64,000 nt of DNA from a virus. Every line of letters begins with the position of its first letter. Position 1 is the stretch's first letter. This document shows positions 1,430-61,155 of the stretch, one piece after another. Both the position numbers and the translations under genes were made by a program. The stretch covers positions 111,261-175,260 of IMG/VR virus record IMGVR_UViG_3300044977_000094; one strand, written 5' to 3'. Below the pieces are notes generated by a model. That model searched no databases and was not told the DNA's origin. It saw only the letters and a list, made by a program, of their open reading frames with translations.

Positions 1430-2134
1430 TCAGACGGCTTCGGCCGCTGTGGCCGGCTTTGCCTTCCGCGAGAACTTCGGCTTCCAGGTGACGTGCGGTG
1501 CGGGCCCGAGCGGCACCTCGTCGGGCGGCTCCGGCGGCAGCGGCGGGAGGCTGCTACGGGGCATGTCGGCGGGGATCGCCGCAGCCGGGTACTGGGCGGT
1601 CTCATCCGGGCCGAAGACCCGCTGCGCGGGCAACTGAACGGTGCTGGGACCGCAGTCGGGCTCCTTGGCCGGCGTGGGCTTGATCGGCTCGACCTTGGCC
1701 ACGGGAGCCCGTGCCACCCGGAGCCGGTCCAGCAACGCCTTAACCTGGTCGATGGCCAGCTCGGCATCCCCGGCGAGCCACGCCAGGAACTCGCCGCGCT
1801 CACTGGTCACGGCACGCCGGTAGACGCGGCCGGCCTCGAAGGCGAAGTGGCGGCCCCACTCCTCGGCCTGCTCGCGGGTCCAGCAGTGCGCCCCGCCGCG
1901 GCCGGCCTCGGGGGTCAGCGGCTCCCACGTGGTGCCGTTCCAGTAGTCCGGGGCTCTGTAGCCGGCGTTGCTGTCGTAGACGACCCAGTCCCCGGCGGCG
2001 TCGGCGGCGATGCCGATGTACTTGCGTGGCCCGGCCCAGTGGCCCTCAACGGGGTAGCGGATGGATGTGGCGAGGTTGGCGAGGTCGGCGCGGGCTTCGG
2101 CGGCCTGGGCGCGGCGTGCAGCCTTGGTGGTCAT
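1430..2134 (-). CDS. Hypothetical protein with Pro-rich C-terminus
   Basis: MTTKAARRAQ... after GAGGGAG RBS. Confidence 0.65.
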   Translation of the reverse strand: MTTKAARRAQAAEARADLANLATSIRYPVEGHWAGPRKYIGIAADAAGDWVVYDSNAGYRAPDYWNGTTWEPLTPEAGRGGAHCWTREQAEEWGRHFAFEAGRVYRRAVTSERGEFLAWLAGDAELAIDQVKALLDRLRVARAPVAKVEPIKPTPAKEPDCGPSTVQLPAQRVFGPDETAQYPAAAIPADMPRSSLPPLPPEPPDEVPLGPAPHVTWKPKFSRKAKPATAAEAV

Positions 2135-2337
2135 CTCGGGTCTCCCTCGGCGGTGTTCTGGGCGTCGTCGATGGCCTGCTGCCACTGGGCGCGTTCTCTG
2201 CGGTATCGCTCGGACAGGTGGAGGCAGCTTTTGACGCTGGGAAGTCGCAGGCGTTGCGTGAGCTGCCGGATGTGGCGCTCGGCGATGTCGCGGGTCGTGT
2301 TGTCCGTCACGCGGAACGTGGTCGCGGGCGCCATCAC
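2131..2337 (-). CDS. Hypothetical protein
   Basis: Coupled small ORF (MAPATTFRVTDN...). Confidence 0.55.
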   Translation of the reverse strand: MMAPATTFRVTDNTTRDIAERHIRQLTQRLRLPSVKSCLHLSERYRRERAQWQQAIDDAQNTAEGDPR

Positions 2338-2729
2338 GCGACCTGCTTTCGGGCGGCGATGTCCGCGGCAGCGGCGGCGCGCAGGGCCTCGACGCCACCG
2401 GGCATGTAGGTGCCCTTCGGGGCCTTGGTCACGGCGCTGCCCTGCGGGAGGGGCTTGGTGCCGGCGACGAGGTCGAGGAGGTTCTGGCCGGGCCGGAACC
2501 TTGGGTGCTGGTGGGCGGGGATGCGGATGGGGGTGCCGTCCTGCGGGTTGCGGGCGGCGCGTTCGTGGCGTTCGACGGTCTCGAAGCGGCCGAAGCCGGT
2601 GACGCTGACGGGTTCTCCGGCGACGAGGCTGCGGGTGATGGTGTCCAGGACGGCGTCGACGGCTGCTTCGGCGGCGCGGCGGCCGCCGAGCTTGGCGGCG
2701 ACGGCGTCGATGGGGTGGGCCTTGTTCAT
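2334..2729 (-). CDS. hup: HU/IHF-family DNA-binding protein
   Basis: MNK...VSVTGFGRFE...R.ARNPQDG.PIRIPA...PRFRPG. Confidence 0.93.
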   Translation of the reverse strand: MNKAHPIDAVAAKLGGRRAAEAAVDAVLDTITRSLVAGEPVSVTGFGRFETVERHERAARNPQDGTPIRIPAHQHPRFRPGQNLLDLVAGTKPLPQGSAVTKAPKGTYMPGGVEALRAAAAADIAARKQVA

Positions 2730-2807
2730 TGCGTTCTCCGTGAGGGTGAAGGTGAGGGTGGGGCTCGAATTCAGGCGGACGTATCCGCAGGTCAGGTAAG
2801 AAGTGGC

Positions 2808-3011
2808 CTAGGCGGTGTCGGTGGGGCAGCCGCAGCCGGGCTCCAGGAGGCTCACGAACCCGGCGAAGCCGTGGTCTGCGCACTCCAGCCAGTTCTGCGG
2901 CAGGACCGGGTGCGGCCCGAAGCTGGCGTAGACGCTGGTGCGGCGTGGGCGCCACGGCAGCAGGGCCACGAGGTCGGCGGCGGCGAAGGCGGCCAGCCAG
3001 CGGGCGGTCAC
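2808..3011 (-). CDS. Hypothetical Cys-containing protein
   Basis: Coupled GTG start; C-terminal CGC. Confidence 0.45.
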   Translation of the reverse strand: MTARWLAAFAAADLVALLPWRPRRTSVYASFGPHPVLPQNWLECADHGFAGFVSLLEPGCGCPTDTA

Positions 3012-3553
3012 GACGTCGCCGCCGGTGCCGGCGTCCACGGGTGGTCGTTGCGGTGCGGGTCGCGGGCTTCGCTGGCGCGCTGCATCAGGGCCAGGCGCTC
3101 CGTCAGGGCGACGCGGGCACGGTGCTCGTCCCGCCACGCCTTCGCGGCGTCACCGCGGCTCGGATCCCACTCGGCGGGCTCCGACGCGCGGGCCAGCGCG
3201 GCCTTCGTGGTGTCCAGTTCCTCGGCCAGGCCCCGCAGCGTGATGTCCCGCTCGGCGATCTGCTCCCGCAGCGCGGCCACCGTCGGCGTGTCCGCGAGGC
3301 GGCGGGTCAGGGCCCTGTTCTCGCCCTCAAGCCCCGTGATGATCTTCTTGAGGGCGGCGACCTCCGCTGAATCCATTGCCCCCGCCGTGCGAACGACGTT
3401 GTCGTACAGCTCCCGCAGCGTCGTCAGGTCCTGAGTGGTGCGGTCGTGCCGCTCGGCTTGGATGGCCTCCCGCTTCTTCCGCAGAGCGACCTCGGCGCGC
3501 AGGTCGCGGTTCTCGCGCCGCAGCTTGCGTCTGGACTTCAAGACCTCAGGCAC
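3008..3553 (-). CDS. Coiled-coil hypothetical protein
   Basis: GAGGAGGAG RBS; heptad-rich sequence. Confidence 0.65.
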   Translation of the reverse strand: MPEVLKSRRKLRRENRDLRAEVALRKKREAIQAERHDRTTQDLTTLRELYDNVVRTAGAMDSAEVAALKKIITGLEGENRALTRRLADTPTVAALREQIAERDITLRGLAEELDTTKAALARASEPAEWDPSRGDAAKAWRDEHRARVALTERLALMQRASEARDPHRNDHPWTPAPAATS

Positions 3554-7978: not shown

Positions 7979-8277
7979 GCGCCGACCGCCTGAAGGAGTG
8001 CCTCGTAGGCGTCCGATCCGTGCGGTGGCTGGAAAAGAACCAGGACGCCGACTCCGAGACGGCGGGTGATGCCGTGGGCTACATCCATGGGGACGCTTTC
8101 CTGGGTGCCGTCCAAGAGGAATCCGATGGTGCTGTGGGCGGCGCAACCTGCTGCCTCGGCGAGAGCTCGGTGGCTTACCTTCTTGCCGTCGCCGGTCCGT
8201 TCCATGAGCTTCGCCATCAGCTCTCGGTCTACGAGCTGGTACATCGGCGGCGGCAGCGTGGGCGTCTTGCTACGCAT
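7975..8277 (-). CDS. Cro-like XRE HTH regulator
   Basis: AAGGAGG RBS; SHRALAEAAGCAAHSTIGFLL HTH; divergent from repressor. Confidence 0.8.
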   Translation of the reverse strand: MRSKTPTLPPPMYQLVDRELMAKLMERTGDGKKVSHRALAEAAGCAAHSTIGFLLDGTQESVPMDVAHGITRRLGVGVLVLFQPPHGSDAYEALLQAVGA

Positions 8278-8334
8278 GTTCACCTCCTTGATCGGAGTGT
8301 CTATCTGCCTGAACAAGACGAGCATTGCATGGCC

Positions 8335-8446
8335 TAGACGCTTTGTCTAGCAGGATGAACAAGATGTTCAGGGGATGGCCCTGGATTGCGCCAAATATGT
8401 CGCGCGCCCTACCCTGCGCCGTCTAAGTAGATGGACACTGTGTCCA
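8335..8446. promoter_or_regulatory. Three operator palindromes TRRAC-N5-GTYYA in the genetic switch
   Basis: TAGAC-GCTTT-GTCTA (8335-8349), TGAAC-AAGAT-GTTCA (8356-8370), TGGAC-ACTGT-GTCCA (8432-8446). Confidence 0.75.
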
Positions 8447-21830: not shown

Positions 21831-23924
21831 CTATTTGATGCGGGTTAGTCGCACCCAGGAGCCGGCGACGAGGCTGGCGGTGTTGCTGCTGGTGCCTGTC
21901 GCGAAAGTGACGGTCAGGCTCCCCGCGGTGCTGCTCGTGACGAGGAGTCCTCGCAGGTGGGCGTGTTTGTTGGCGCCGGTCCCGGACCAGGTGTCGGTGC
22001 CGGTGATGGTGGCGACGTAGTTCCCGGCGGCGTCGCCCCACTGCATGGTCGCGCCCGAGGGGCCGGTCCAGGAGTGGACGAAGTTCACCCCGGACGGCGT
22101 TTCGATGATCAGGGCCGCGTCCAGCAGGTAGGTGGCGCTGGCCTCAACTGCGATGACCAGGTGCGTGGAGGCAGTCTGGCCGGTGGAGGTGGTGGTCTCG
22201 GTGGCGGCCGACACGGCGTAGGCGTCGACCAGGCTGCGCACGTTGCCGGACGTGTCGCGGAGTTTGAGTGGCGCCGCGGTCCCCGACTGAGAGTAGACGA
22301 CGCCGCCGGCCGTGGGGTTCGTCGTCGGCACGGTCGTGGCGTCCGCGACCTGGATTTCGCCGACGCCGTTGTCGCCCAGTGCGGTCGCGGATCCGATCAG
22401 GGCGTTCTTCGAGGTGTACCAGACGCCCGCGGCGGCGCGCCCGTAGGCCGTGTCGCGGGCGGCGGAGCCAGAGCCGAGGTTGACAGCTCCGTCGCAGGTC
22501 AGGCGGTAGGTGTCGAAGCTGAGCCCACTGACCCCCGCACCGTGGGCGATGCTCGTCGTGTCGTGGCCGGTGGTGCCGAACATGCGCTGCCCGGTGGAAC
22601 CACCGGTTACGGCGATCATGGTGCCGGAGCTGGCGGTGAAGTTCACGCCCGTCGCGAAGTTGACGACACCGCTGCTGGCCTCGATGACGCCCGCGGGCAG
22701 GTTCGTGAACCAGTTGCTGCTCGACGAGCCGGAGCCTTGGAAGGCTGCCGCGTCGACCAGGACGGCCTGGCCGACGGTGCCGATGTTGATGGACTCCTGG
22801 ACGCCGGCGCTGCCGCTGGTCACGATGTTGCTGCCGAGCCAGCAGCCGAGGATCTTGCCTTGGGCGGTTCCGGACCAGTTGATGTCGTAGTTCGTGCCGC
22901 TGGCCCCGGCGCCGTTCAGGTTGAACAGGCAGTCGTAGATGTGGACGGGCTTGCCGGTGGACGCGACGGTGATCCCGTGGGTCTGGTTGTTGATCAGACG
23001 GGAGGTGGCGATGTGGACCTGGTAGGCGCCGCCGGTGATCTGCAGGCCGGGCGAGCCCTGCTGGATGACGCCGCCTTGGATCTGCACGTTCTGCGGGGAG
23101 CCGTTGGGGCCGTCCTCGATCAGCACGCACGGGCCCGCGTGTGGCCCCAGGGCGTCGAGGTTGGTCACGAAAGCGGCCGCGCAGTCGCCCTTGATGTGCA
23201 CGGACGAGCCGGTGCCGTTCGACGTCCAGGCGATGGCGTTCTCGACCAGGACGTCCCAGGAGTCCTCGATGCGGATTGTGTCCAGGTTCGCGCTGGCGCC
23301 GCTGGTGACGCCGCCTCCGTAGAACTGGACGTCGGTGACCTGCGAGTTCATCGCGAAGCCCTGGGCGGTGTTGCCAAGGAAGTGGATGCCGCCCGCGCAG
23401 GAGTTCCCGTAGAGGTGGGAGATCTGCGTGCCCAGCGGGTTGCTGCTCCCGGAGGCGGAGGTGGCGGCGACTTCGATGGCCCAGCCGTTGACGTACCAGA
23501 ACTGGCAGTTCTCGATCTTGTTGCGGCGTACGCCGGTGATCTCGATGGCGTTGCATGCCGGGTTGCTGGTGGTGGTCGAGCTCGCCCCGGACACCGACAA
23601 GTTCCGCACCTGGCAGTTGTAGCCGGTGATCTCGATTGCTGCGGTGCCGGAGAAGCTGGACCCGATCAGGAGCTTCGTGTTCTCCGCACCGGCGCCCGTC
23701 AGCACGGTCGCGGGCGTCGTCAGCGTCAGCGGGCCGCTGTTCAGCAGGTAGCTGGCGGTCGTGGCCGGGAGGTACACGACGCCGCCGTTGGAGCCCAGCT
23801 GGTTGATCGCGGCCTGGATCGCGGCGGTGTCGTCGGTGACGCCGTCGCCCTTGGCGCCGTAGGTGACCGCGGAGACCCAGCCCAGGGCCGTGGCGATGGT
23901 CGTACCGAACGCGCTGGCGGTCAC
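21831..23924 (-). CDS. Tail spike/fibre with right-handed beta-helix (pectate-lyase-like depolymerase)
   Basis: YGAKGDGVTDDTAAIQAAI...GGVVYLP followed by Asn/Gly/Ile beta-helix repeats. Confidence 0.85.
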   Translation of the reverse strand: MTASAFGTTIATALGWVSAVTYGAKGDGVTDDTAAIQAAINQLGSNGGVVYLPATTASYLLNSGPLTLTTPATVLTGAGAENTKLLIGSSFSGTAAIEITGYNCQVRNLSVSGASSTTTSNPACNAIEITGVRRNKIENCQFWYVNGWAIEVAATSASGSSNPLGTQISHLYGNSCAGGIHFLGNTAQGFAMNSQVTDVQFYGGGVTSGASANLDTIRIEDSWDVLVENAIAWTSNGTGSSVHIKGDCAAAFVTNLDALGPHAGPCVLIEDGPNGSPQNVQIQGGVIQQGSPGLQITGGAYQVHIATSRLINNQTHGITVASTGKPVHIYDCLFNLNGAGASGTNYDINWSGTAQGKILGCWLGSNIVTSGSAGVQESINIGTVGQAVLVDAAAFQGSGSSSSNWFTNLPAGVIEASSGVVNFATGVNFTASSGTMIAVTGGSTGQRMFGTTGHDTTSIAHGAGVSGLSFDTYRLTCDGAVNLGSGSAARDTAYGRAAAGVWYTSKNALIGSATALGDNGVGEIQVADATTVPTTNPTAGGVVYSQSGTAAPLKLRDTSGNVRSLVDAYAVSAATETTTSTGQTASTHLVIAVEASATYLLDAALIIETPSGVNFVHSWTGPSGATMQWGDAAGNYVATITGTDTWSGTGANKHAHLRGLLVTSSTAGSLTVTFATGTSSNTASLVAGSWVRLTRIK

Positions 23925-50426: not shown

Positions 50427-51200
50427 CTATGCGGCGGTTGACTCCTGGACATACTCCGCCGCCGCTGAGATTACGGCAAACCTGCCCTCTTGGCCAGCCC
50501 TCTCCTCGGACTTGTACTTCTCGGTGAGTTCATCGGACCATGCCTGGTACTCGGCCTCGCTCATCAGGGTTTCGCAGGCCGGGTTGTGGCAGGCGATGTA
50601 GTCCTCGCCGTCGCCGAAGAACAGGGACCGCCAGCCGCACTTCTTGCACGGCGCGGACTTCTGGTCGAGGCGCACGTCCCGCCGAGTGAAGCGCGTCGCG
50701 GCCCGGTTCCAGTGGCTGATCTGCGAGGCTGGGTTCGCCGAGTCCCGGTCGTGCGTTTCCATCGCGGCCGGGTGGTGGGTGAGCGCCCAGTCGAGATGCG
50801 TGAGCAGGAACGCCACTGCTCCGGTGGCTGTCTGGCCCTCGCGTCCCCGGTCGGGGCGGGGATTGAGGTGCCGCAGGTCCCGAAGGTCGTCTTCGAGCTC
50901 GATCAGGCCGCCGACGATGAGGTCCGTCATCAGGCGGGCGGCCTGTCCGGGCCAGACGGCTTCGGGGGAGCGGCCGATCGTGCCCAGCTTGTCGCCCTCG
51001 CGTGTGCCGTTGGTGGCTTCCAGCCAGATGGCGGCGAGGAGTTCGGGGAGCTCGGAGAGTTGGCGGTAGGCGCGGCCTGTGCACGGCAGGCAGTGCACGG
51101 GGGTGCCCCAGGTGGGGGTGAGGTCGTGGGGTTCGCCGGCGGCTTCGGCTTTCCTCCACGGGTTGTTGTGAGAGCCAGGGCAGACGTTGAGCACGGACAT
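50427..51200 (-). CDS. Zn-finger protein, putative late-gene regulator
   Basis: CLPC...L.ELP.L, CKKCG, C.NP.C; position upstream of HTH and terminase. Confidence 0.65.
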   Translation of the reverse strand: MSVLNVCPGSHNNPWRKAEAAGEPHDLTPTWGTPVHCLPCTGRAYRQLSELPELLAAIWLEATNGTREGDKLGTIGRSPEAVWPGQAARLMTDLIVGGLIELEDDLRDLRHLNPRPDRGREGQTATGAVAFLLTHLDWALTHHPAAMETHDRDSANPASQISHWNRAATRFTRRDVRLDQKSAPCKKCGWRSLFFGDGEDYIACHNPACETLMSEAEYQAWSDELTEKYKSEERAGQEGRFAVISAAAEYVQESTAA

Positions 51201-51274
51201 GGCGCAGCTCCCGGTGTGGCAGGAGTGAGGGTAGTGGCTGAGCCAAGTATGCGCCCGTGATCGTCAAGGCGCGG

Positions 51275-52109: not shown

Positions 52110-52733
52110 TCACGCCCATGGTGGCTTCCCGCCCGCTGCCCACGCGGCGAGCTGTTCCCGTTCGCATACCAGGAACTTGGCCCGGCGGCAGTACTCGGCT
52201 GCGTCCCGGGTCAGGTGCGAGGTGGTGACGATCAGGGCCACGTCGGCGCCGTGGATGACCTTCCAGGTGCCGCCGACCTTCTGTACGTCCTCGGAGGACA
52301 CGCGGTTCGACAGGGCATAGAACTTGTCCTGCACCAGCAGCTTCCGCCCGTCGGGGAGGCGTGCCAGGTTGTCGGCGGCGAAGTCGCCCGCTCCGCCGAC
52401 GCGCCGAACCTGCGTGCAGCCGTCACGGCGCAGCAGGTCCGCGGTGAAGAACTCGAAGGTGGTCGAGTTCAGGGCGAGGATCTGGTTCAGGGTGTGAGCG
52501 CGGTGGAGTCGCTGCTGCTCGCGGCGCCGGTGCATCCGAAGCTGGGCGGCGGCGGCCAGGCCGCCCGCCAGCAGGGCGACCACCACGACGCTGACGATCA
52601 GCACCGCATGGGCGGCTACCTCCTGCAGCAGCACATCGCCGGCCCAGTACGCGCCCAGCAGCCCAAGGAGCACCGCCGCAGGATGGACACGGCGGCGACG
52701 GGTCCAGCGCCGCCAGTGTCGCCGCGCGCTCAC
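52110..52733 (-). CDS. Membrane-anchored Mrr-like restriction endonuclease
   Basis: Two N-terminal TM segments; FEFF.ADLL..DG...VGGAGD.AAD...VQDKFY...A.IVTTS..T..A. Confidence 0.85.
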   Translation of the reverse strand: MSARRHWRRWTRRRRVHPAAVLLGLLGAYWAGDVLLQEVAAHAVLIVSVVVVALLAGGLAAAAQLRMHRRREQQRLHRAHTLNQILALNSTTFEFFTADLLRRDGCTQVRRVGGAGDFAADNLARLPDGRKLLVQDKFYALSNRVSSEDVQKVGGTWKVIHGADVALIVTTSHLTRDAAEYCRRAKFLVCEREQLAAWAAGGKPPWA

Positions 52734-53161
52734 CGACCGGCCTGGAAGCTGGAGTTGTCGCCCTGGTGGAAGTTCTGGATCCGCACCCCGCCTGCCGACT
52801 TCACCACGACGAGCGCGACCGCGCCGCCAACCACGATGGCCGCGACACCGATGAGCGCGTGCGTGGCCAGGGCCATGCCCGCGAACATGAGGTACGACCC
52901 GGCCTCGGCGATGCCGGCGCCGGCCAGGATCCCGAACGCCATCACCCCGCAGCCGTACATGCGCTGCGGCAGCGGATCGTACGGGGGCAACGGCGCGGGC
53001 TGGTAGGCGTAGTACGGGGCGTGCCCTGGCACGGACACCACGCGGGCCGTCGGCGGCACCAGGGCGGGCGCGGCGGGTGGCGTATAGGGGGCGGGCAGGT
53101 TGGCAGGCATGGCGATCGCCTCGTCCTGGGCCCAGTCGTAGAAGTCGGTGCGGACGGACAT
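52730..53161 (-). CDS. Membrane protein (Spd-like)
   Basis: Pro-rich N-terminus plus two TM segments; coupled to TraB-like gene. Confidence 0.65.
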   Translation of the reverse strand: MSVRTDFYDWAQDEAIAMPANLPAPYTPPAAPALVPPTARVVSVPGHAPYYAYQPAPLPPYDPLPQRMYGCGVMAFGILAGAGIAEAGSYLMFAGMALATHALIGVAAIVVGGAVALVVVKSAGGVRIQNFHQGDNSSFQAGR

Positions 53162-55248
53162 CAGTTCTCCTCGGCGCGGAACGCGTACAGGCCGCGGGCG
53201 GGCTGGTGGATGCGGGGATCGGCGGACAGCCACGTGGTAACCGCCGAGCGGGACGGTGCGGTCTGCCCGGGGTAGGTGTCGGCGAACACCGCGATGACGG
53301 CGGACGGGTTGATGCCTTGCGGACCGGCGCAGCGCACGATCTCCACGACCAGGCCGATGCGCGGGTCCGCCCCGGGCTTGGCCGGCGCCTCGGGCTCCTG
53401 CGGCTGCGGGGGCTTGCCCCAGTCGATGCCACCGGCGGCGAGGATCTCGCGGAACTTCTGCTCGGTGTCCGGGTCACGGTCCGTGGCGTCGGACATGGCC
53501 TCGTGCAGGCGACGGCGCACGGCCTCGGCCTCGTCGATCGCCGCCTGCGCGTCCCCGCCCGTGGGCGCCGTGGGGTTGCCCCAGTCGGCGGTGACGCCGG
53601 TGGTGCGCGGCCGCTCCACCGCCTGCTGCTCCTCAGCGACCGCACCGACCGGTACGGGGCCTGCGCCGAAGAGGTGGTCGGTGTTCTCCCAGCGACGCTC
53701 GTACGCCTCGCCCGCTGCCCGGCGGGACAGATCGTCCAGCTCGGGCTGCCGGTCGGCGCAGGCGGCGACAATGTCCCGAATCTGATTGGGCTTGATTCGG
53801 AACACCTTGAAGGGCCGCGCGGGTTCGTCGTCGACCTTGATGAATCCGCAGCCCGGATAGGGGGCCTCGTCGGGGCTTACCCGGTCGGACCAGCCGAACA
53901 GGTACGCCATCTCGGCTTCGTCGGACTTCATGCCGATCTTCAGAGCGGCCTGCTTCACCAACTGCGGTTCGGTCACGACGTCCTGGGTGGCGCGCAGGGC
54001 CGCGTTCTCGACATTGCAGGCCACCGCCCGTCCGAGCTCCAGGATCTGCACGATGATGTCGCCGGTTTCCCGCAGCACCGGATCACGCCGGGCCTTCGGC
54101 GAGAACAGCTCCGCGATCTCGTCGTCGTCCAGCACGATCCCGGGAACCTGCGGGCTGACGGGGAGCTTGTCCGTGTTGGCGGTGATCTCCAGGTGCTTGT
54201 AGCCGGGCTTGCGGGCCTTCGCGATCCGCAGCAGCGCCTTGGCCATGGCCAGCGCCTTCTCCGGCGTGTCCGCGATCCAGTCGATCGGCGGACGGCCCGG
54301 ACGGCCGGCTGCCTCCCAGGCGTGCAGCCAAGCGAGGGCGAGGCCGCCGCCGTTGAGGTCGATCACCCAGGAGAGGCAGTCCGTCATTCGGCACTGGTTG
54401 GCGAGCTTGACGTTCATCAGGTTCGTCTTGCCCGAGCCGCGGCGCCCCGCGGTGAACCCGGACCGCTCGCGCAGGTTGGGTGCCGCGTCGGTGCCGTCAC
54501 GGTAGATGCCGTGCGGATTGGGGCCGTCCAGGGACAGCGGCGAGTAGTCGGTGGGGTAGTCGGCGTCGTCGATCAAGGCGTTGACGGTGGCCACATCGAT
54601 GAGAACGGCGCCGCGGTGCTGGCCGGCTTTCATCTCGACGCCGCAGCCTTCTGGGAGGCGGGCCTCGGCTGCGAGGGAGTCGCAGTAGGGGACGAGGTCG
54701 CGCCACTTGGTTCCGCCGAGGCATTCGGCGTCCAGGGTGAGTCCGGCGCCGGATTCCCACATCTCCACGCCGACGATCTTGACGGTGGCGCCGGTGCACA
54801 CCAGGGCGATGCGGGCATCCCACTCGTCGGCGATCTTCTGCCGCTGGTAGTCCATCGTCGCCCGCTTCACCGCGGCCTCGACGTCGGCCTTGTGCGCGGC
54901 CTGCTCCTCCTCGACGCGGTGCGCGCCGACCAGGGAGATGCCCAAGCCAATCGCGCCCGCAGCCAGGGCGGCGATCACCGGCGGATGCCACGGGCCGACC
55001 TGGACAGCCCACCGGCACCACGCTCCGGTCGCCAACCACGCCGCGGCGTGCAGCGCCAACGTTGGCCAGGGCCAGCGCTTCCGGCGCCCGGCCACCGCAG
55101 TGCCCAGCAGGCCCGCGCCGGCGGCGGCCAGAGCCCAGTCGGCGGGCAGGTGCGCGACGTGCCCGGCGTACGACAGCGCCAGCGCGCTCACAGCGGCGTT
55201 GAACGGCCCGCTGACCGGCCCGTGGCCGCGATCCCAGTCGATGTGCAC
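53161..55248 (-). CDS. traB: FtsK/SpoIIIE-type conjugal transfer ATPase (TraB-like)
   Basis: N-terminal TM region, GRRGSGKT Walker A, IVLDDDE Walker B, GRA, C-terminal wHTH-like region. Confidence 0.75.
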   Translation of the reverse strand: MHIDWDRGHGPVSGPFNAAVSALALSYAGHVAHLPADWALAAAGAGLLGTAVAGRRKRWPWPTLALHAAAWLATGAWCRWAVQVGPWHPPVIAALAAGAIGLGISLVGAHRVEEEQAAHKADVEAAVKRATMDYQRQKIADEWDARIALVCTGATVKIVGVEMWESGAGLTLDAECLGGTKWRDLVPYCDSLAAEARLPEGCGVEMKAGQHRGAVLIDVATVNALIDDADYPTDYSPLSLDGPNPHGIYRDGTDAAPNLRERSGFTAGRRGSGKTNLMNVKLANQCRMTDCLSWVIDLNGGGLALAWLHAWEAAGRPGRPPIDWIADTPEKALAMAKALLRIAKARKPGYKHLEITANTDKLPVSPQVPGIVLDDDEIAELFSPKARRDPVLRETGDIIVQILELGRAVACNVENAALRATQDVVTEPQLVKQAALKIGMKSDEAEMAYLFGWSDRVSPDEAPYPGCGFIKVDDEPARPFKVFRIKPNQIRDIVAACADRQPELDDLSRRAAGEAYERRWENTDHLFGAGPVPVGAVAEEQQAVERPRTTGVTADWGNPTAPTGGDAQAAIDEAEAVRRRLHEAMSDATDRDPDTEQKFREILAAGGIDWGKPPQPQEPEAPAKPGADPRIGLVVEIVRCAGPQGINPSAVIAVFADTYPGQTAPSRSAVTTWLSADPRIHQPARGLYAFRAEEN

Positions 55249-55277
55249 GATCAAGCCCTTCACCCAGTGACCTGGGG

Positions 55278-56627
55278 CTAGTTGGAGGCGACGTCCCACA
55301 TGCGCTCACCGGCGTGGCCCTTGCGGGGCTGCTCGATGCGGGCGATGTCGACGTCGTGGAGCTTGCGGAACGCGGGCTGTAGCTCGCTCGCCATCTCAGC
55401 TGCCTTCAGCTGCAACTGGTGGATCTGCCGCATCATTTCGACGATCTGCGGCGCCAGCGGGTACTTCGCGTCGGCGTTCTCGACCGTGACCTTCATGGCC
55501 TCGGCGTTGAGTTCCAGGGCTTGCTGGAGGCCGGCGAAGTCGGCGCCGACCTGCATCATGCCGGTGGGCTGGTAGTTGGCTGCCGCGCGTGCCGCTTCCA
55601 TGGCGGGGGCGACGAAGTGGTGTCCGGACATGGCGGGGGCTCCCGTGGTCGAGGCGGCGGTGTAGGCGGTGGGTCGTCGGACAGTGGCGGCAACGGTCGG
55701 GGCCGGCGCGGGTACGGCTTTGGCGGCCTTGCGGTTGGCGCGATGCTTGAGCCACGCGGCCTTGGCCCTCTGGGCGCCCTTGCGGAGCGACGCGTGCTTG
55801 ATCACGCCCCACAGGCCGGCCCTAGCCGACCGCAGGGCATCGGCGGCGGCGCCGCGGGCCCGGACGGCGTGGCGGCGGGCAGCAGCGCCGGCCTTGGTGC
55901 GGTGCGGCTTGCTGGCCTTCCAGGCGCGCGCGGACTGCTGGGCGGCGACACGACCGGCGCGGCGGGCGAGGGACGCGGCTGCGCCCTGCCGCTGGCCGGT
56001 CTTGCCCTTCCCGGGCTTCTGCTTCCCATGGCGGTCGGTCTTGCCGGTTCCGCCGCGCATCCGGTCCGCGAGCCGCGCCAACCGCGAGTCCCCAGTGGAA
56101 CCTGCGCTGGAACCTCTGCGGGTTCTGGGGCCGCCGGAACCTGGGGCCGAGCCGGAACCTGATCGGGTTCGGGGCGAACCGGTTCCGACGGAGCCGGTGG
56201 TCGAACCAGGGCGAGAGGTTCGCGCGGAACCAGCAGAGCCCGAACCGGCGCCCGACCGTGACGGAACCGACCAGGACCCGGTTCCGCCGGACCGGTTCGC
56301 GCGGGCAGTCGTCCGACGCTTCACGGTCCCGCGGCGGCGAACCACCCCCGCGGCACCAACCCCGACCATGCCGACGCTTGCGGCCGCCAGGACAGGCCAG
56401 CCGCCCGCCGCGTAGGCACCCGTAGCGGCGAGCGTGGCAGCGTTCCCCGCGGCGGCCAGAGCAGGGCCGGCCGGGATGCCGCGGCGGTGCTTGGACGGGC
56501 GGCTGGGCGGCTGGTGCTCGGCGGATGCGGGCTGCTGCCAGTCGGCCGTGACCGCAGGCACCGGAGCCGCCACGGGTGCTGGGGCCGGGATCGTCGGGGG
56601 TGCTGGCGGGGCCTGGGTGTCCGCCAC
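55278..56627 (-). CDS. Plasmid-transfer accessory protein (TM, basic linker, helical C-domain)
   Basis: AAGGAG RBS; TM segment, Ser/Gly/Arg linker, C-terminal F...H..DI.R..PR...E.MWDV. Confidence 0.65.
   Translation of the reverse strand: MADTQAPPAPPTIPAPAPVAAPVPAVTADWQQPASAEHQPPSRPSKHRRGIPAGPALAAAGNAATLAATGAYAAGGWPVLAAASVGMVGVGAAGVVRRRGTVKRRTTARANRSGGTGSWSVPSRSGAGSGSAGSARTSRPGSTTGSVGTGSPRTRSGSGSAPGSGGPRTRRGSSAGSTGDSRLARLADRMRGGTGKTDRHGKQKPGKGKTGQRQGAAASLARRAGRVAAQQSARAWKASKPHRTKAGAAARRHAVRARGAAADALRSARAGLWGVIKHASLRKGAQRAKAAWLKHRANRKAAKAVPAPAPTVAATVRRPTAYTAASTTGAPAMSGHHFVAPAMEAARAAANYQPTGMMQVGADFAGLQQALELNAEAMKVTVENADAKYPLAPQIVEMMRQIHQLQLKAAEMASELQPAFRKLHDVDIARIEQPRKGHAGERMWDVASN
56046..56343. 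repeat. GAACC/GGTTC motif array 1 (about 17 copies)
   Basis: Counted by hand; both orientations; inside a CDS linker. Confidence 0.8.
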
Positions 56628-56642
56628 GGGGGTCTCCTTGAT

Positions 56643-56738
56643 GTCGTCGTAGTCGTCGTCGCTGGGCCGGGAGGGGCAGGTCATGCGCGTACAGGGGGTG
56701 GGGTGGGTGTCGTCGTCGCCGTGGGCGACTACGACGAC
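56643..56738. repeat. Intergenic GTCGTCG repeats with a 13-bp inverted repeat
   Basis: GTCGTCGTAGTCG (56643-56655) pairs with CGACTACGACGAC (56726-56738); GTCGTCGTCGC occurs twice. Confidence 0.65.
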
Positions 56739-56747
56739 GACGCGGGT

Positions 56748-57713
56748 CTAGCCGCCCTCGCCGTGCTCCTCGGCCCAGGTGGTACGGGCCTCGATGAGCC
56801 GGTTGTAGGCGGTCGTCTTGGACATGCCGGTCTGCTCCTGGACGAACTTGAGCTTCACGGTGTCGTAGCCGTGCTCCTGGATCAGGTCGAGGATCTGCTG
56901 CACCTGATCGAGGACCGACGGCGTGCCGGGATTGGTGGGCTTGGCCTCGGCGGCCGGCTTGGGCTTGCTGCGCTTCGGCTGGGTTCGAGTGAGATTCGGT
57001 TGACCCGGATCCGCAGGTTCAACGGCCGCCGACGGGAGAGGTTCGGAACCAGCCGGAACCTGGGGTGCTGCGGGTTCCGGAACCTGCCCGGGCCGGTGAA
57101 CCTCTACCGGTTCGGGCTCCGAGGGGCGCGCCTGAACCTGGTTCGGAACTTCCTCGAATCTGTCCGGGAGGGGGAGGTTCAGGACGTAGGCGCGAACCAG
57201 GTTCCAGGTTCCCTTGTGGTCGAACAGGAACCGCAGCGGGTGGAGGCGGGGGCGAACCTCGGCTCCGTCGCGGCGCTTCGCGGCGGCCCGGACTTCCGAC
57301 ATGAGCCCTTCGAAGAGGATCACTGCGGCGGGTGGCATGAGGGCGGCGACGTCCCGGCCGACGGGGTCGCTGATGTGCTCCCAGTTGATCCACGACGACA
57401 GGGCGGTGAAGGCGACGATCAGGGTGCGCCAGAGCGTTGCGGATCGTCCGTGGACGCCGGCGCGCATGACGACGATGGATAGGCCGGCGGGGGCGCCGTC
57501 GAAGGTCATGGGGACGAGCCATGCGGATCGGTGGCTGAGCATCATGTGCTGCTCGCCGAAGAGGTGGAGGCCGATGAAGCTGGCGGACCAGCCGGAGAGG
57601 GCGACGACGAGGACTAAGGCGAAGCCGAAGCCGCCGAGTCCGGTGTCGCGGAGCCAGAGGGCGGCGTGGCGGCTCCAGGCTGCGGCTCGGTCGAGCTTGC
57701 CTGTGTCGGTCAC
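56748..57713 (-). CDS. DUF2637-like membrane protein with C-terminal HTH (Spd-like)
   Basis: SF..L, AWL.P..D, S..IN..H, PP.A...FE TM core; C-terminal KFVQEQTGMSKTTAYNRL. Confidence 0.75.
   Translation of the reverse strand: MTDTGKLDRAAAWSRHAALWLRDTGLGGFGFALVLVVALSGWSASFIGLHLFGEQHMMLSHRSAWLVPMTFDGAPAGLSIVVMRAGVHGRSATLWRTLIVAFTALSSWINWEHISDPVGRDVAALMPPAAVILFEGLMSEVRAAAKRRDGAEVRPRLHPLRFLFDHKGTWNLVRAYVLNLPLPDRFEEVPNQVQARPSEPEPVEVHRPGQVPEPAAPQVPAGSEPLPSAAVEPADPGQPNLTRTQPKRSKPKPAAEAKPTNPGTPSVLDQVQQILDLIQEHGYDTVKLKFVQEQTGMSKTTAYNRLIEARTTWAEEHGEGG
56982..57258. repeat. GAACC/GGTTC motif array 2 (about 17 copies)
   Basis: Includes palindromic pairs GGTTCGGAACC, GGTTCCGGAACC, GAACCTGGTTC, GAACCAGGTTC. 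Confidence 0.8.
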
Positions 57714-57776: not shown

Positions 57777-57902
57777 TCAGACGTCGGTGTCGATCGGGGT
57801 GGGGCGCATGCGCTGGGGCTCGTCGTTGCTGGGCTCGGGCTCGTCGTTGCTGGGCTCGGGCTTGTCGTCGCTGGGCTCGGGTGTGCTGCTGATCGGGTTC
57901 AT
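57777..57902 (-). CDS. 41-aa acidic peptide with three PEPSxDx repeats
   Basis: GAGAGG RBS; MNPISSTPEPSDDKPEPSNDEPEPSNDEPQRMRPTPIDTDV; 21-bp tandem repeat. Confidence 0.5.
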   Translation of the reverse strand: MNPISSTPEPSDDKPEPSNDEPEPSNDEPQRMRPTPIDTDV

Positions 57903-59407: not shown

Positions 59408-59956
59408 TCAGGCGGCGTTCCCCAGCAGGTACTCGTCGATCGTCATCCCGCGCAACGCCAGCGCCTCGCCCACCGTGGCCGTCCCGCACTCCGTCACCAG
59501 GGCGCGCAGGCTACGGGCGGTCTCCCGGTTGTACACCAGCGGCGCCATCTTGCCGTCCATGCCCTCGATGACCGAGCTGAGGTCGTCCACGGTCATATCC
59601 TCCAGGCTGGTGTCCTGCCAGAACAGGGCCTGCGTCTCGGGATCGCGCCGCCGCAGCGCCTGGACGCCCGACAGTCGCACCAACTTCTCGCCGTCCCGGG
59701 TCTGCACCGGGTGGCGCGTCCGGTCCCAGGACTTGAAGCGCCGGATGTGGCCGGCGCGGGCGTCCTCGTCCATCACCCACTTGGCCCAGGTGCGCTGCGC
59801 CTGGATGGCGTCGTTCAGCAGCTCGTGGAACCTGTCGCCCATCTCGCAGCTGGGCCGGCGCTGGCCGTTCTCGTCGAACCCCGCCTCGAAGACGAGGGCG
59901 TCGTACTCGGCGCGCTCCTCCGCACTGAGCATGTTCCGGATGTTGCTGTTCCTCAC
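59408..59956 (-). CDS. Hypothetical protein coupled to the ParB-like gene
   Basis: GTG start overlaps ParB stop; GGAGG RBS. Confidence 0.7.
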   Translation of the reverse strand: MRNSNIRNMLSAEERAEYDALVFEAGFDENGQRRPSCEMGDRFHELLNDAIQAQRTWAKWVMDEDARAGHIRRFKSWDRTRHPVQTRDGEKLVRLSGVQALRRRDPETQALFWQDTSLEDMTVDDLSSVIEGMDGKMAPLVYNRETARSLRALVTECGTATVGEALALRGMTIDEYLLGNAA

Positions 59957-60960
59957 TGATTTCCTCCGGCGAGGCGTAGGCCAGGCTTGGGCCTGGCCGT
60001 GTCGATGCGGTCGAACCAGTCGTCGACCGCGGCGCGGAGCCGATCCAACTCGGCCCAGCGCTCGGATCCGTCCCGACGCGAGGTGAGCGCCTCGGCTACG
60101 CGGTCCGGATCCAAGATCGTGAAGTTGCGCAGCGCTACGCAGGCCGAGGTGTAGTTCTTGAACACCAGGGCGAGCTGGACATCGGGGTCCTTGCCGAGAT
60201 GCTCATCGAGTGCCTTGCGCACCGCTTGGTGCGCCGGGTTGATGGCCGCGCCGGTCTGGGCGAGCGCGGGCATCTGCTTGCGGGCGATCTCGCGGACCGG
60301 CTCAGGGACCGGCTCCTCATGCTTGGCGCTGCCGGCGCCGACGGTGCGGGTGCCACGCTCGGCGATCTGCCGAACCTCGTCCACCTTGTCGATGGAGCTA
60401 CCGGAGAAGCCAGTGGTGACGGCGCCCACCTTGCGTGCAGCCGCAGAGGTCGGACTCGTTGGAAACTCGTCCAAGTTGGACGAGTTTCCGCGGTCAGCCT
60501 TTGGCTCCTCCCAGAATCCGTCCTGCGGGATCTCCGGCTCGACCGTCTTGGCGGGGCGCCCGGGCTTGCGGATTACCGCCGCCTCGGTAAGCACCTTGAT
60601 CCGGCGTTCGCGCATCCGGCTGGCCTCCAGCGGGGACAGCGGCTTGCGGCAGGTGTTCTCGTCAGCTTCGGCGCGCAGGGCCTGCTCGGCGCTGAACCAG
60701 TCGACGACGGTGACCGGCGTCTCGGTCCAGCCGAGCTGCCGGACCGCAGCGAGCCGTCGCCCGCCGGCCACGAGGTCCAGGTTCGCGGTGACGACGATCG
60801 GGTGAAGGAGACCGACGGCAGCGATGGACGCAGCCAATTCGTCGATCCCGTCGATGACTTGACGGTCGCGCTCGCCGACGCGAATGGCGTCGAGCGGGAC
60901 GGCGTCGGGGGTGGTGCCGGGTGCCCCTGGGGGAGGGACTTCTGTGGTGGCGATTCCCAT
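59953..60960 (-). CDS. ParB/Srx N-terminal domain protein
   Basis: I.ELAASI..VGLLHPIVV....LVAGGRRLAA...LG, EN..RK.LSP.E. Confidence 0.85.
   Translation of the reverse strand: MGIATTEVPPPGAPGTTPDAVPLDAIRVGERDRQVIDGIDELAASIAAVGLLHPIVVTANLDLVAGGRRLAAVRQLGWTETPVTVVDWFSAEQALRAEADENTCRKPLSPLEASRMRERRIKVLTEAAVIRKPGRPAKTVEPEIPQDGFWEEPKADRGNSSNLDEFPTSPTSAAARKVGAVTTGFSGSSIDKVDEVRQIAERGTRTVGAGSAKHEEPVPEPVREIARKQMPALAQTGAAINPAHQAVRKALDEHLGKDPDVQLALVFKNYTSACVALRNFTILDPDRVAEALTSRRDGSERWAELDRLRAAVDDWFDRIDTARPKPGLRLAGGNQ
60461..60489. repeat. Perfect 14-bp inverted repeat inside the ParB-like gene
   Basis: GGAAACTCGTCCAA-G-TTGGACGAGTTTCC. Confidence 0.85.
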
Positions 60961-61155
60961 GCCTATTGAACGATTGGCGTCACGGAAATGCGCCCGCAAT
61001 CTTCCAACTACTTCTCGTTCATGCAGGTCAGACGGTGCGTTACCTACTCCACGAGTCCTTCACGAACGGCGATCGAATTTGATCGGATCGTGCCGCATTC
61101 TGACCGAGTGACAGGCTGAAGCCCCGGTCGCTTCCCGGCCGGGGCTCCGTGCTGC

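Follow-up and report, generated by a model that had tools for sequence, protein, structure and literature searches.

A stretch of viral DNA of 64,000 nucleotides (nt), here called the window (IMG/VR record IMGVR_UViG_3300044977_000094, positions 111,261 to 175,260, renumbered from 1), carries two dense arrays of the word GAACC and its complement GGTTC. The window, with a GC content of 69.2%, covers the final 64 kb of one contig of 175,260 base pairs (bp). Both arrays lie within coding sequences, one in a gene for a membrane protein, designated S, and the other in its neighbor, designated X, upstream of a gene for a TraB-type pump of double-stranded DNA (dsDNA). They have very probably been selected at the level of DNA as protein-binding arrays, and comparison of related modules makes the C-terminal tail of S, which contains a helix-turn-helix (HTH), their likely reader. 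In the reading favored here, to which we would give a probability of about 0.55, the arrays would be element-specific docking sites for the S HTH and would tether the element's own DNA at the TraB/Spd apparatus.

The arrays had been noticed in an earlier reading of the letters alone (the sequence-only reading), which put them at about 17 copies each; counting gives exactly 17 in both. Array 1 (56046–56343, with starts from 56046 to 56339) occupies the codons of a Gly/Ser/Thr/Arg-rich linker in gene X, and array 2 (56982–57258, with starts from 56982 to 57254) occupies those of a Pro/Glu-rich linker in gene S and extends into the end of the DUF2637 domain. Both lie inside coding sequence, 0.8–2.0 kb upstream of traB. 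The remaining ~63 kb of the window contain 132 copies, or 0.62 per 300 bp. Furthermore, an enrichment scan for short words over the entire 175,260-bp replicon finds the two arrays to be its sole dense GAACC places, with 16–17 copies per 300 bp compared to 4 at the next best position. Palindromic pairs of the kinds described earlier, either head-to-head or tail-to-tail, are located at five places (56176/56181, 57040/57046, 57073/57080, 57134/57140, and 57194/57200). The extended consensus of the arrays is approximately C-S-GAACC-K-G, and their strand balance in the window is weak (9/8 and 7/10 for the two arrays).

As the sequence-only reading had pointed out, the same word specifies different residues in the two genes. 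In gene X, it is mostly read as GGT-TCC (Gly-Ser) or GGA-ACC (Gly-Thr), and in gene S as GAA-CCx (Glu-Pro), GTT-CCx (Val-Pro), or AAC-CTG (Asn-Leu); it is found in several codon phases and in both orientations. When each protein sequence is fixed and every codon is redrawn from local codon usage, the expected number of copies is 1.7–1.8 +/- 1.2–1.3 for array 1 (maximum 6–7) and 4.4–5.2 +/- 1.6–1.9 for array 2 (maximum 10), compared to the 17 observed in each case (z-scores of 6–12). Thus, composition does not explain the enrichment. Permuting the synonymous codons inside each segment yields 5.9 copies for array 1 and 9.4 for array 2, again compared to 17 each. The codons used by the arrays include rare ones, since GGT, GGA, GAA, and GTT make up only 11%, 6%, 17%, and 6% of their respective families. 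Tandem Repeats Finder detected no array-wide tandem structure, merely two tiny local repeats; consequently, the arrays consist of interspersed sites with variable spacers rather than the products of slippage. Given the several codon phases, the two orientations, and the codon controls, selection acts on the DNA, as had been proposed, and the presence of different words at the same two positions in related modules points the same way. The odd amino acid composition of the linkers looks like a consequence of this selection.

Relatives of the module were gathered by TraB scans of viral and genome collections, and their arrays were identified by an unbiased k-mer clustering scan. This yielded about 30 related S-X-traB modules (referred to by locus numbers such as L001) with TraB proteins that are 49–63% identical, and nearly all of them carry two arrays, one in S at ~1.8–2.2 kb and one in X at ~0.8–1.2 kb upstream of traB. 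Both arrays of any one element always share one word. There are nine words overall: GAACC in the window, L011, and L015; CGCCCC in seven loci; CGCCAC in five; CGCTAC in eight; and CGTTGC, CGGGCA, CTGGCGMCA, CCGAAGC, and CGACGG in one locus each. In L001, the closest plasmid (TraB 50% identical), the same row of S, X, and traB is present, with arrays of CGCCCC/GGGGCG at the same two places. A blastn search against plasmids gave almost no DNA-level matches. Codon resampling of 27 loci (27 S and 27 X genes) places 52 of the 54 genes above expectation with z-scores of at least 2.8. The array regions of the three GAACC elements can hardly be aligned, and only 3–8 of the window's 17 site positions are common with either relative. 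As judged from these alignments, the GAACC elements have kept the word and its density, but neither the peptide nor the arrangement of the sites. Wherever the transfer module is found, the arrays accompany it, be it on plasmids, on phages, or on chromosomal islands, the last represented by L019 and L024, which lie in large chromosomal contigs.

Two other features of the relatives may be mentioned here. In most of the other word classes (L001, L012, L013, L017, L050, and others), nearly all copies in S point one way and nearly all copies in X the other, so that the arrays are turned toward one another over the S-X junction and the segment coding for the HTH. In addition, L014 (2873–5986), with a TraB that is 63% identical, has both an S and an X gene, and its S tail is homologous to that of L057, the locus with CTGGCGMCA arrays.

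The proteins of the module differ greatly in how well they follow the word. Over 325 locus pairs, segment identity was used as a predictor of a shared word, and the area under the curve (AUC) was 0.999 for the last 60 residues of S, 0.91 for the X C-terminus, 0.84 for the winged HTH (wHTH) of TraB, 0.81 for the TraB core, and 0.78 for the N-terminal membrane domain of S. The start of helix 3 in the S tail pairs with the word: SRRH[GA]Q with CGCCCC, [ST]RQ[YF]A with CGCCAC, SRAQAG with CGCTAC, [SP]KTTAYNRL with GAACC, and KQTTAYDRL with CCGAAGC. The remaining words pair with S tails of other fold types. Helix 3 of TraB behaves otherwise. It is identical in 47 locus pairs that have different words and different in 21 pairs that have the same word. 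PHAATIGRWL is found unchanged in CGCCCC, CGCCAC, and CGCTAC elements, PSRSAITDWL is found unchanged in GAACC, CCGAAGC, and CTGGCGMCA elements, and the GAACC class includes six TraB helix-3 versions. Given this double dissociation, the idea that the arrays are a loading locus recognized directly by TraB, one of two possibilities raised by the sequence-only reading, is not supported. The arrays may still help to load TraB indirectly, through the membrane protein S.

Because the module is mosaic, the pairing of word and HTH goes beyond linkage alone. The S membrane domain of the window is nearest to that of L012 (68%), which has the word CGCCAC, and the C-terminal domain of X is nearest to those of CGCTAC elements (78–80%). 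The wHTH of TraB is equally near to elements with other words (54%, 51%) and to GAACC elements (55%, 52%). Only the S HTH groups the window with the GAACC elements L011 and L015 (72–78%). In an out-of-sample test, the protein collection was searched with the S tail alone, and every match with readable DNA was taken. In six of six new contigs (S tail 62–77% identical), GAACC was the top clustered 5-mer, with 19–27 copies in S. The X region contained 17–28 copies in five of the six; in L073, which has a different gene there, it contained 5. These predictions, together with the co-variation, favor the other possibility that had been raised, namely that the HTH of the DUF2637 protein is the reader, and it is likely that the arrays are read by the S tail.

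Other candidate readers were considered and rejected. In a tblastn search with the open reading frames (ORFs) of the window, the ParB-like gene had no counterpart in 26 related loci. A 278-aa (amino acid) protein (50427–51263, minus strand), which belongs to no family, has homologues only in L011 (61%), L015 (42%), and L058 (40%), where the S tails are of the window's fold type; it is lacking near the arrays of all other classes and consequently cannot be a general reader. The FtsK-gamma domain, sought either as a standalone gene or in fused form, is absent from the window's replicon. Elsewhere, FtsK_gamma (PF09397, E-values of 1e-17 to 1e-19) is fused behind the wHTH of TraB in L013 (~8130–8385) and L005, the TraB C-terminal tails of L023, L026, L059, and L062 are similar by sequence to the fused ones, and L011 has the domain as a 76-aa standalone gene upstream of S (2855–3085).

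Gene S (56748–57713, minus strand) encodes a 321-aa membrane protein, the proposed reader of the arrays. A DUF2637 domain at its N-terminus is followed by a disordered linker and, at the C-terminus, by an HTH of three helices. Residues 32–175 (57189–57620, minus strand) match PF10935 (DUF2637) with an E-value of 1.4e-31 and 110 bits, compared to a cut-off of 22.8, and the translation contains four hydrophobic segments there. Given four membrane segments and a basic N-terminus, the S tail should be cytoplasmic. An AlphaFold2 model of the C-terminus (residues 267–317; 56763–56915, minus strand) gives a confident three-helix bundle, with a predicted local distance difference test score (pLDDT) of >90 across the helices. 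Helix 1 spans residues 267–281, helix 2 residues 288–295, and helix 3, the putative recognition helix, residues 299–317, beginning SKTTAYNRL. The membrane domains of L011 and L015 have no PF10935 match despite the same HTH.

Taken together, these results have led to a model for how the arrays might work. In this model, S, X, and TraB would be made from the same operon, and S would be inserted in the membrane with its tail in the cytoplasm. Many copies of the S HTH would then coat the ~34 sites in cis within 1.2 kb and so keep the element's DNA at the membrane, at the place of assembly of X and TraB. The arrays would have a clt-like role, such as the clt plays for TraB in pSVH1, but with the adaptor S as the sequence reader. 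The sites would occupy codons of two disordered linkers in which nearly every peptide is tolerated. A private pair of HTH and word in each element would provide exclusive access, or element-specific recruitment, and could drive diversification. From the comparisons of sequences, we infer that S physically binds the sites, that it tethers them to the membrane, and that this is linked to transfer. That the arrays serve transfer or spread at the TraB apparatus seems to us close to an even chance.

Several observations weigh against this model. The HTH-coding segment lies only 70–300 bp from array 2, and the co-variation could partly be co-inheritance. Since the loci share a phylogeny, the pairwise statistics lack independence, and the ~nine independent word switches that underlie them are a modest number. 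In the distant plasmid L007, the S gene contains GGAACC sites although its HTH is unrelated, and no S segment is conserved across the clade as a fixed interface with TraB or X. The X arrays are weak in L057 (z-score of 2.2) and L058 (z-score of 1.4), and L014 has an S protein and no detectable array. In several other word classes, the arrays of S and X have opposite polarity (forward/reverse counts in L001 of 21/0 for S and 4/25 for X; in L050 of 0/15 for X), which resembles that of translocase-guiding words and would fit a motor-related role. Finally, the Foldseek matches of the S HTH model (TetR, AsnC, and winged-helix HTH domains) are non-significant, with a best E-value of 0.47.

The main functional rival to docking for transfer is a membrane-anchored stability or centromere role, which has the same reader and the same site. 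In this case, the S-bound arrays would anchor a phage-plasmid at the membrane for positioning and inheritance in hyphae and would have no direct role in TraB transfer. Such a role has a parallel in sps/SpdA2, which acts on stability and not on transfer (PMC4170104), and the replicon, which has a ParB-like gene but no nearby ParA, resembles a phage-plasmid. However, the S and X arrays always accompany traB in one co-oriented, partly overlapping operon, and they are also present in copies integrated into a chromosome, for which partition is not needed (L019, L024). Furthermore, Spd-type genes have been tied experimentally to spreading (PMC4447253). A pure stability site is consequently judged to be unlikely.

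It is somewhat harder still to sustain a classical clt like that of pSVH1, recognized by TraB itself through its C-terminal winged helix and displaced upstream into coding sequences. Short repeats clustered beside traB do have the appearance of a clt (PMC4447253, PMC3583192), and no other clt-like array was found near traB in the window's clade. In addition, the opposite array polarity in several relatives recalls translocase-orienting words, and the families of TraB helix 3 and of words are coarsely correlated, as the AUC of 0.84 indicates. However, PHAATIGRWL and PSRSAITDWL each occur with three words, the GAACC class has its six helix-3 versions, and the wHTH of the window TraB is no nearer to those of GAACC elements than to others. 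In distant plasmids, moreover, a second array is located downstream of traB, and its word is unlike that of the S-gene array. This explanation is therefore considered improbable.

A very unlikely possibility is that the arrays form an operator field, that is, repressor sites through which S or another regulator would autoregulate or roadblock the potentially lethal traB operon. The sites are within the operon and upstream of traB, and traB is tightly controlled in Streptomyces plasmids by a kil-kor system (PMC4447253). However, 34 sites over two coding regions far exceed what an operator needs, a membrane-anchored repressor would be unusual, and related modules have GntR-type TraR regulators with intergenic sites of their own. 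The last alternative, that the arrays have no function and are a by-product of low-complexity peptides, codon bias, or replication slippage, can draw on their position in low-complexity linkers and on a Lys/Gly-rich stretch in L007 that does yield a trivial GCAAG cluster, but it is scarcely credible in the face of codon resampling (z-scores of 6–12 in the window and >3 in all classes), the use of rare codons, one word encoding different peptides in two genes, the lack of tandem structure, and a word that can be predicted from a protein domain, the S HTH.

To our knowledge, clt read by TraB is the only established cis site in Streptomyces-type conjugation. Many elements, including pSAM2, the archetypal actinomycete integrative and conjugative element, have no described clt (PMC9513070). 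If the docking model is correct, an SpdB-like membrane-protein reader would constitute a second layer of specificity in this type of transfer and would explain why some elements need the genes next to tra for their transfer. The pairs SRRH-CGCCCC, SRQY-CGCCAC, SRAQ-CGCTAC, and SKTTAYN-GAACC would then represent a protein-DNA recognition code with natural variants, one that sets which co-resident elements can use each other's transfer machinery. The arrays are also a clear case of overlapping information, in which a DNA-binding word would dictate the amino acid composition of two protein linkers. Finally, if the model is correct, a tailed phage could move its genome between hyphal compartments without virions, a point that bears on the spread of large actinophages or phage-plasmids as naked dsDNA through a plasmid-type pump. 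In the full proposal, which is offered as tentative and is on balance doubtful, the pump in this widespread clade of TraB modules on phages, plasmids, and integrated elements would have given up the task of identifying an element's own DNA for transfer or spread as dsDNA. An adaptor anchored in the membrane would have taken it over, with an HTH that reads dozens of sites within coding linkers, and a fast-diversifying HTH-word code would govern the sharing of machinery between co-resident elements and allow virion-free movement of a phage between hyphal compartments.

The three genes of the module are all on the minus strand in one co-oriented row. Gene X (55278–56684, minus strand) encodes 468 aa. 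The N-terminal part of the protein is hydrophobic, the linker with array 1 is basic and of low complexity, and the C-terminal domain is conserved; the 3' end of the gene overlaps the start of traB by 22 nt. Homologues of X occupy the same position in all related loci. The protein has no family in Pfam or NCBIfam, and a scan of genome contigs with X alone gave no relatives. The traB gene (53161–55299, minus strand) encodes a TraB-like dsDNA translocase of the FtsK/HerA superfamily with 712 aa, as recognized from a model of its motor domain and from its homologues. With a pLDDT of 88.8, the model of the motor domain matches the FtsK motor (6t8b, 2ius), TcpA, and EccC, with E-values of 1e-10 to 1e-12 and template modeling (TM) scores of ~0.6, and its homologues in Streptomyces plasmids and phages carry the annotation of FtsK-like translocases. 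The window TraB has no match in Pfam, including PF01580, and no NCBIfam family; PF01580 gives a weak match in L004 and L007 and a clear one in pIJ101 Tra. A search of PDB sequences with the TraB profile gave no match. The Walker A P-loop, GRRGSGKT (residues 285–292; 54424–54447, minus strand), has columns G285, G288, G290, and K291 that are invariant in the alignment of relatives. The C-terminal winged-helix-like domain (approximately residues 650–705; 53185–53352, minus strand; helix 3 PSRSAVTTWL) is a conserved segment with an HTH-like pattern, as judged by alignment. The 712-aa protein is a TraB-type dsDNA pump.

The replicon is the genome of a large tailed phage of the Streptomyces type. 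At positions 21831–45799 of the window and beyond, it encodes a large terminase, an SPP1-type portal, minor and major capsid proteins, Dit, a tape-measure-like protein of 1475 aa that includes a tail lysozyme, and a fibre resembling pectate lyase. No match to phages was obtained with megablast of the structural region or with tblastn of S. Given a tailed-phage genome together with a plasmid-type S-X-TraB module and a ParB-like gene, the replicon is probably a phage-plasmid like pZL12. The ParB-like gene, which has a ParB_N domain, lies at 59953–60999, and no ParA is nearby. With a partner of ~180 aa, it forms a pair upstream of the transfer module (59408–60999, minus strand); the close relative L069 has this pair too (1459–3004), and most other related loci lack it. 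Between this pair and the module, just upstream of gene S among small ORFs preceding the operon, a 21-bp unit is repeated 3.3 times with 93% matches (57812–57881). On the other side, a long ORF with an Mrr_cat domain (52110–53771, minus strand) runs into the 3' end of traB. In close relatives, an Mrr_cat restriction-endonuclease-like gene is located two genes downstream of traB (L068, 10215–10808; L069, 10168–10749), with a small gene of ~146 aa between traB and the Mrr gene.

Among known systems, the clt loci are the obvious comparison. They are clusters of 5–9-bp direct and inverted repeats by traB with element-specific words (PMC4447253, PMC3583192, PMC5133688). The window is like them in having clusters of short repeats beside traB on an element that would move as dsDNA through a TraB/FtsK-type pump. 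However, the known clt loci are non-coding or at the 3' end of tra, have 4–9 copies, and are bound by the C-terminal wHTH of TraB or TraA, whereas the window has two 17-copy arrays within two upstream coding sequences, and the word in its clade tracks the HTH of a membrane protein rather than the wHTH of TraB. No clt-like array was found downstream of traB in the window or in 18 relatives, where there are only GC-rich background words; on these comparisons, the S-linked arrays are the sole candidate cis site of the module in the window's clade.

Three distant plasmids with the same gene row do have a textbook clt array of direct and inverted repeats of 6–8 bp directly downstream of traB: Streptomyces mobaraensis pDSM40587 (L003, 8763–8869, TGTTGC/GCAACA), Frankia pFQ12 (L004, 6941–7070, five direct and two inverted copies of GACGCAA), and a Streptomycetaceae plasmid (L007, 8801–8905, paired GTACTCG/CGAGTAC). 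In L003 and L007, a different word is clustered inside the S gene in addition to the downstream array, and the two different words suggest that the clt-like array and the S-gene array may be two separate cis systems. The GCAAG cluster in the X gene of L007 was rejected as a composition artefact of a Gly-Lys repeat. A Kitasatospora linear plasmid (L006) has ~37 copies of CGGGTACG within 670 bp (2758–3430) inside an S-like gene; these copies encode a repeat rich in Gly-Thr/Pro-Tyr-Pro.

A second comparison is with sps/SpdA2 of pIJ101 (Thoma et al. 2014), in which the binding motif lies within the coding sequence of its own binder (PMC4170104). There, a DNA motif for protein binding imposes a peptide motif on a protein of a Streptomyces conjugative element. 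The window would be a comparable case, with array 2 in gene S, the candidate binder, whose HTH co-varies with the word. However, sps is a conserved 12-bp palindrome, CGTCACGTGACG, present in 1–3 copies and nearly invariant between plasmids, and SpdA is small and soluble. In the window, the word is GAACC rather than CGTCACGTGACG, and S is not a SpdA protein. More generally, the words of the window and its relatives are asymmetric, 5–9 bp long, and variable from element to element; the window has 17 + 17 copies, the second array is in a neighboring gene, and the presumed binder is a DUF2637 membrane protein. The arrays also resemble ParB-parS systems and iterons, in which many short sites nucleate a specific complex and cognate pairs diversify between related replicons, but S has no homology to ParB or Rep. 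A ParB-parS identity was rejected, since the ParB_N gene of the window has no match in the 26 related loci.

In the literature searched, clt/TRS and sps are described, and no description was found of arrays in coding linkers with an SpdB-like or DUF2637 protein as their sequence-specific reader. S itself may be compared with SpdB2 of pSVH1. According to PMC4447253, this membrane protein co-purifies and interacts with TraB, binds dsDNA, and is required for intramycelial spreading; the same paper reports SpdB2-like genes on actinophages too. Like S, for which four membrane segments are predicted, SpdB2 is a polytopic membrane protein encoded beside traB, but its DNA binding is reported to be non-specific, with no cognate site known. 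The SpdB protein of pIJ101 has no PF10935 match, and the likeness of S to SpdB is one of operon position and hydrophobic segments. In the tailed-phage genomes of pZL12/phiZL12 and of Hiyaa-like Streptomyces phages, a TraB-like gene likewise stands in a row with a gene for a membrane protein and a large gene of no assigned function; in these, however, TraB is just 27–34% identical, and the same k-mer scan found no comparable arrays at the two loci. Transfer of pZL12 and SCP2 is reported to need tra and two adjacent genes (PMC3583192). The proposed docking of S would thus fit the properties of SpdB2, the need of pZL12 and SCP2 for the genes beside tra, and the precedent that sps/SpdA2 provides for a binding site written into the gene of its own binder.

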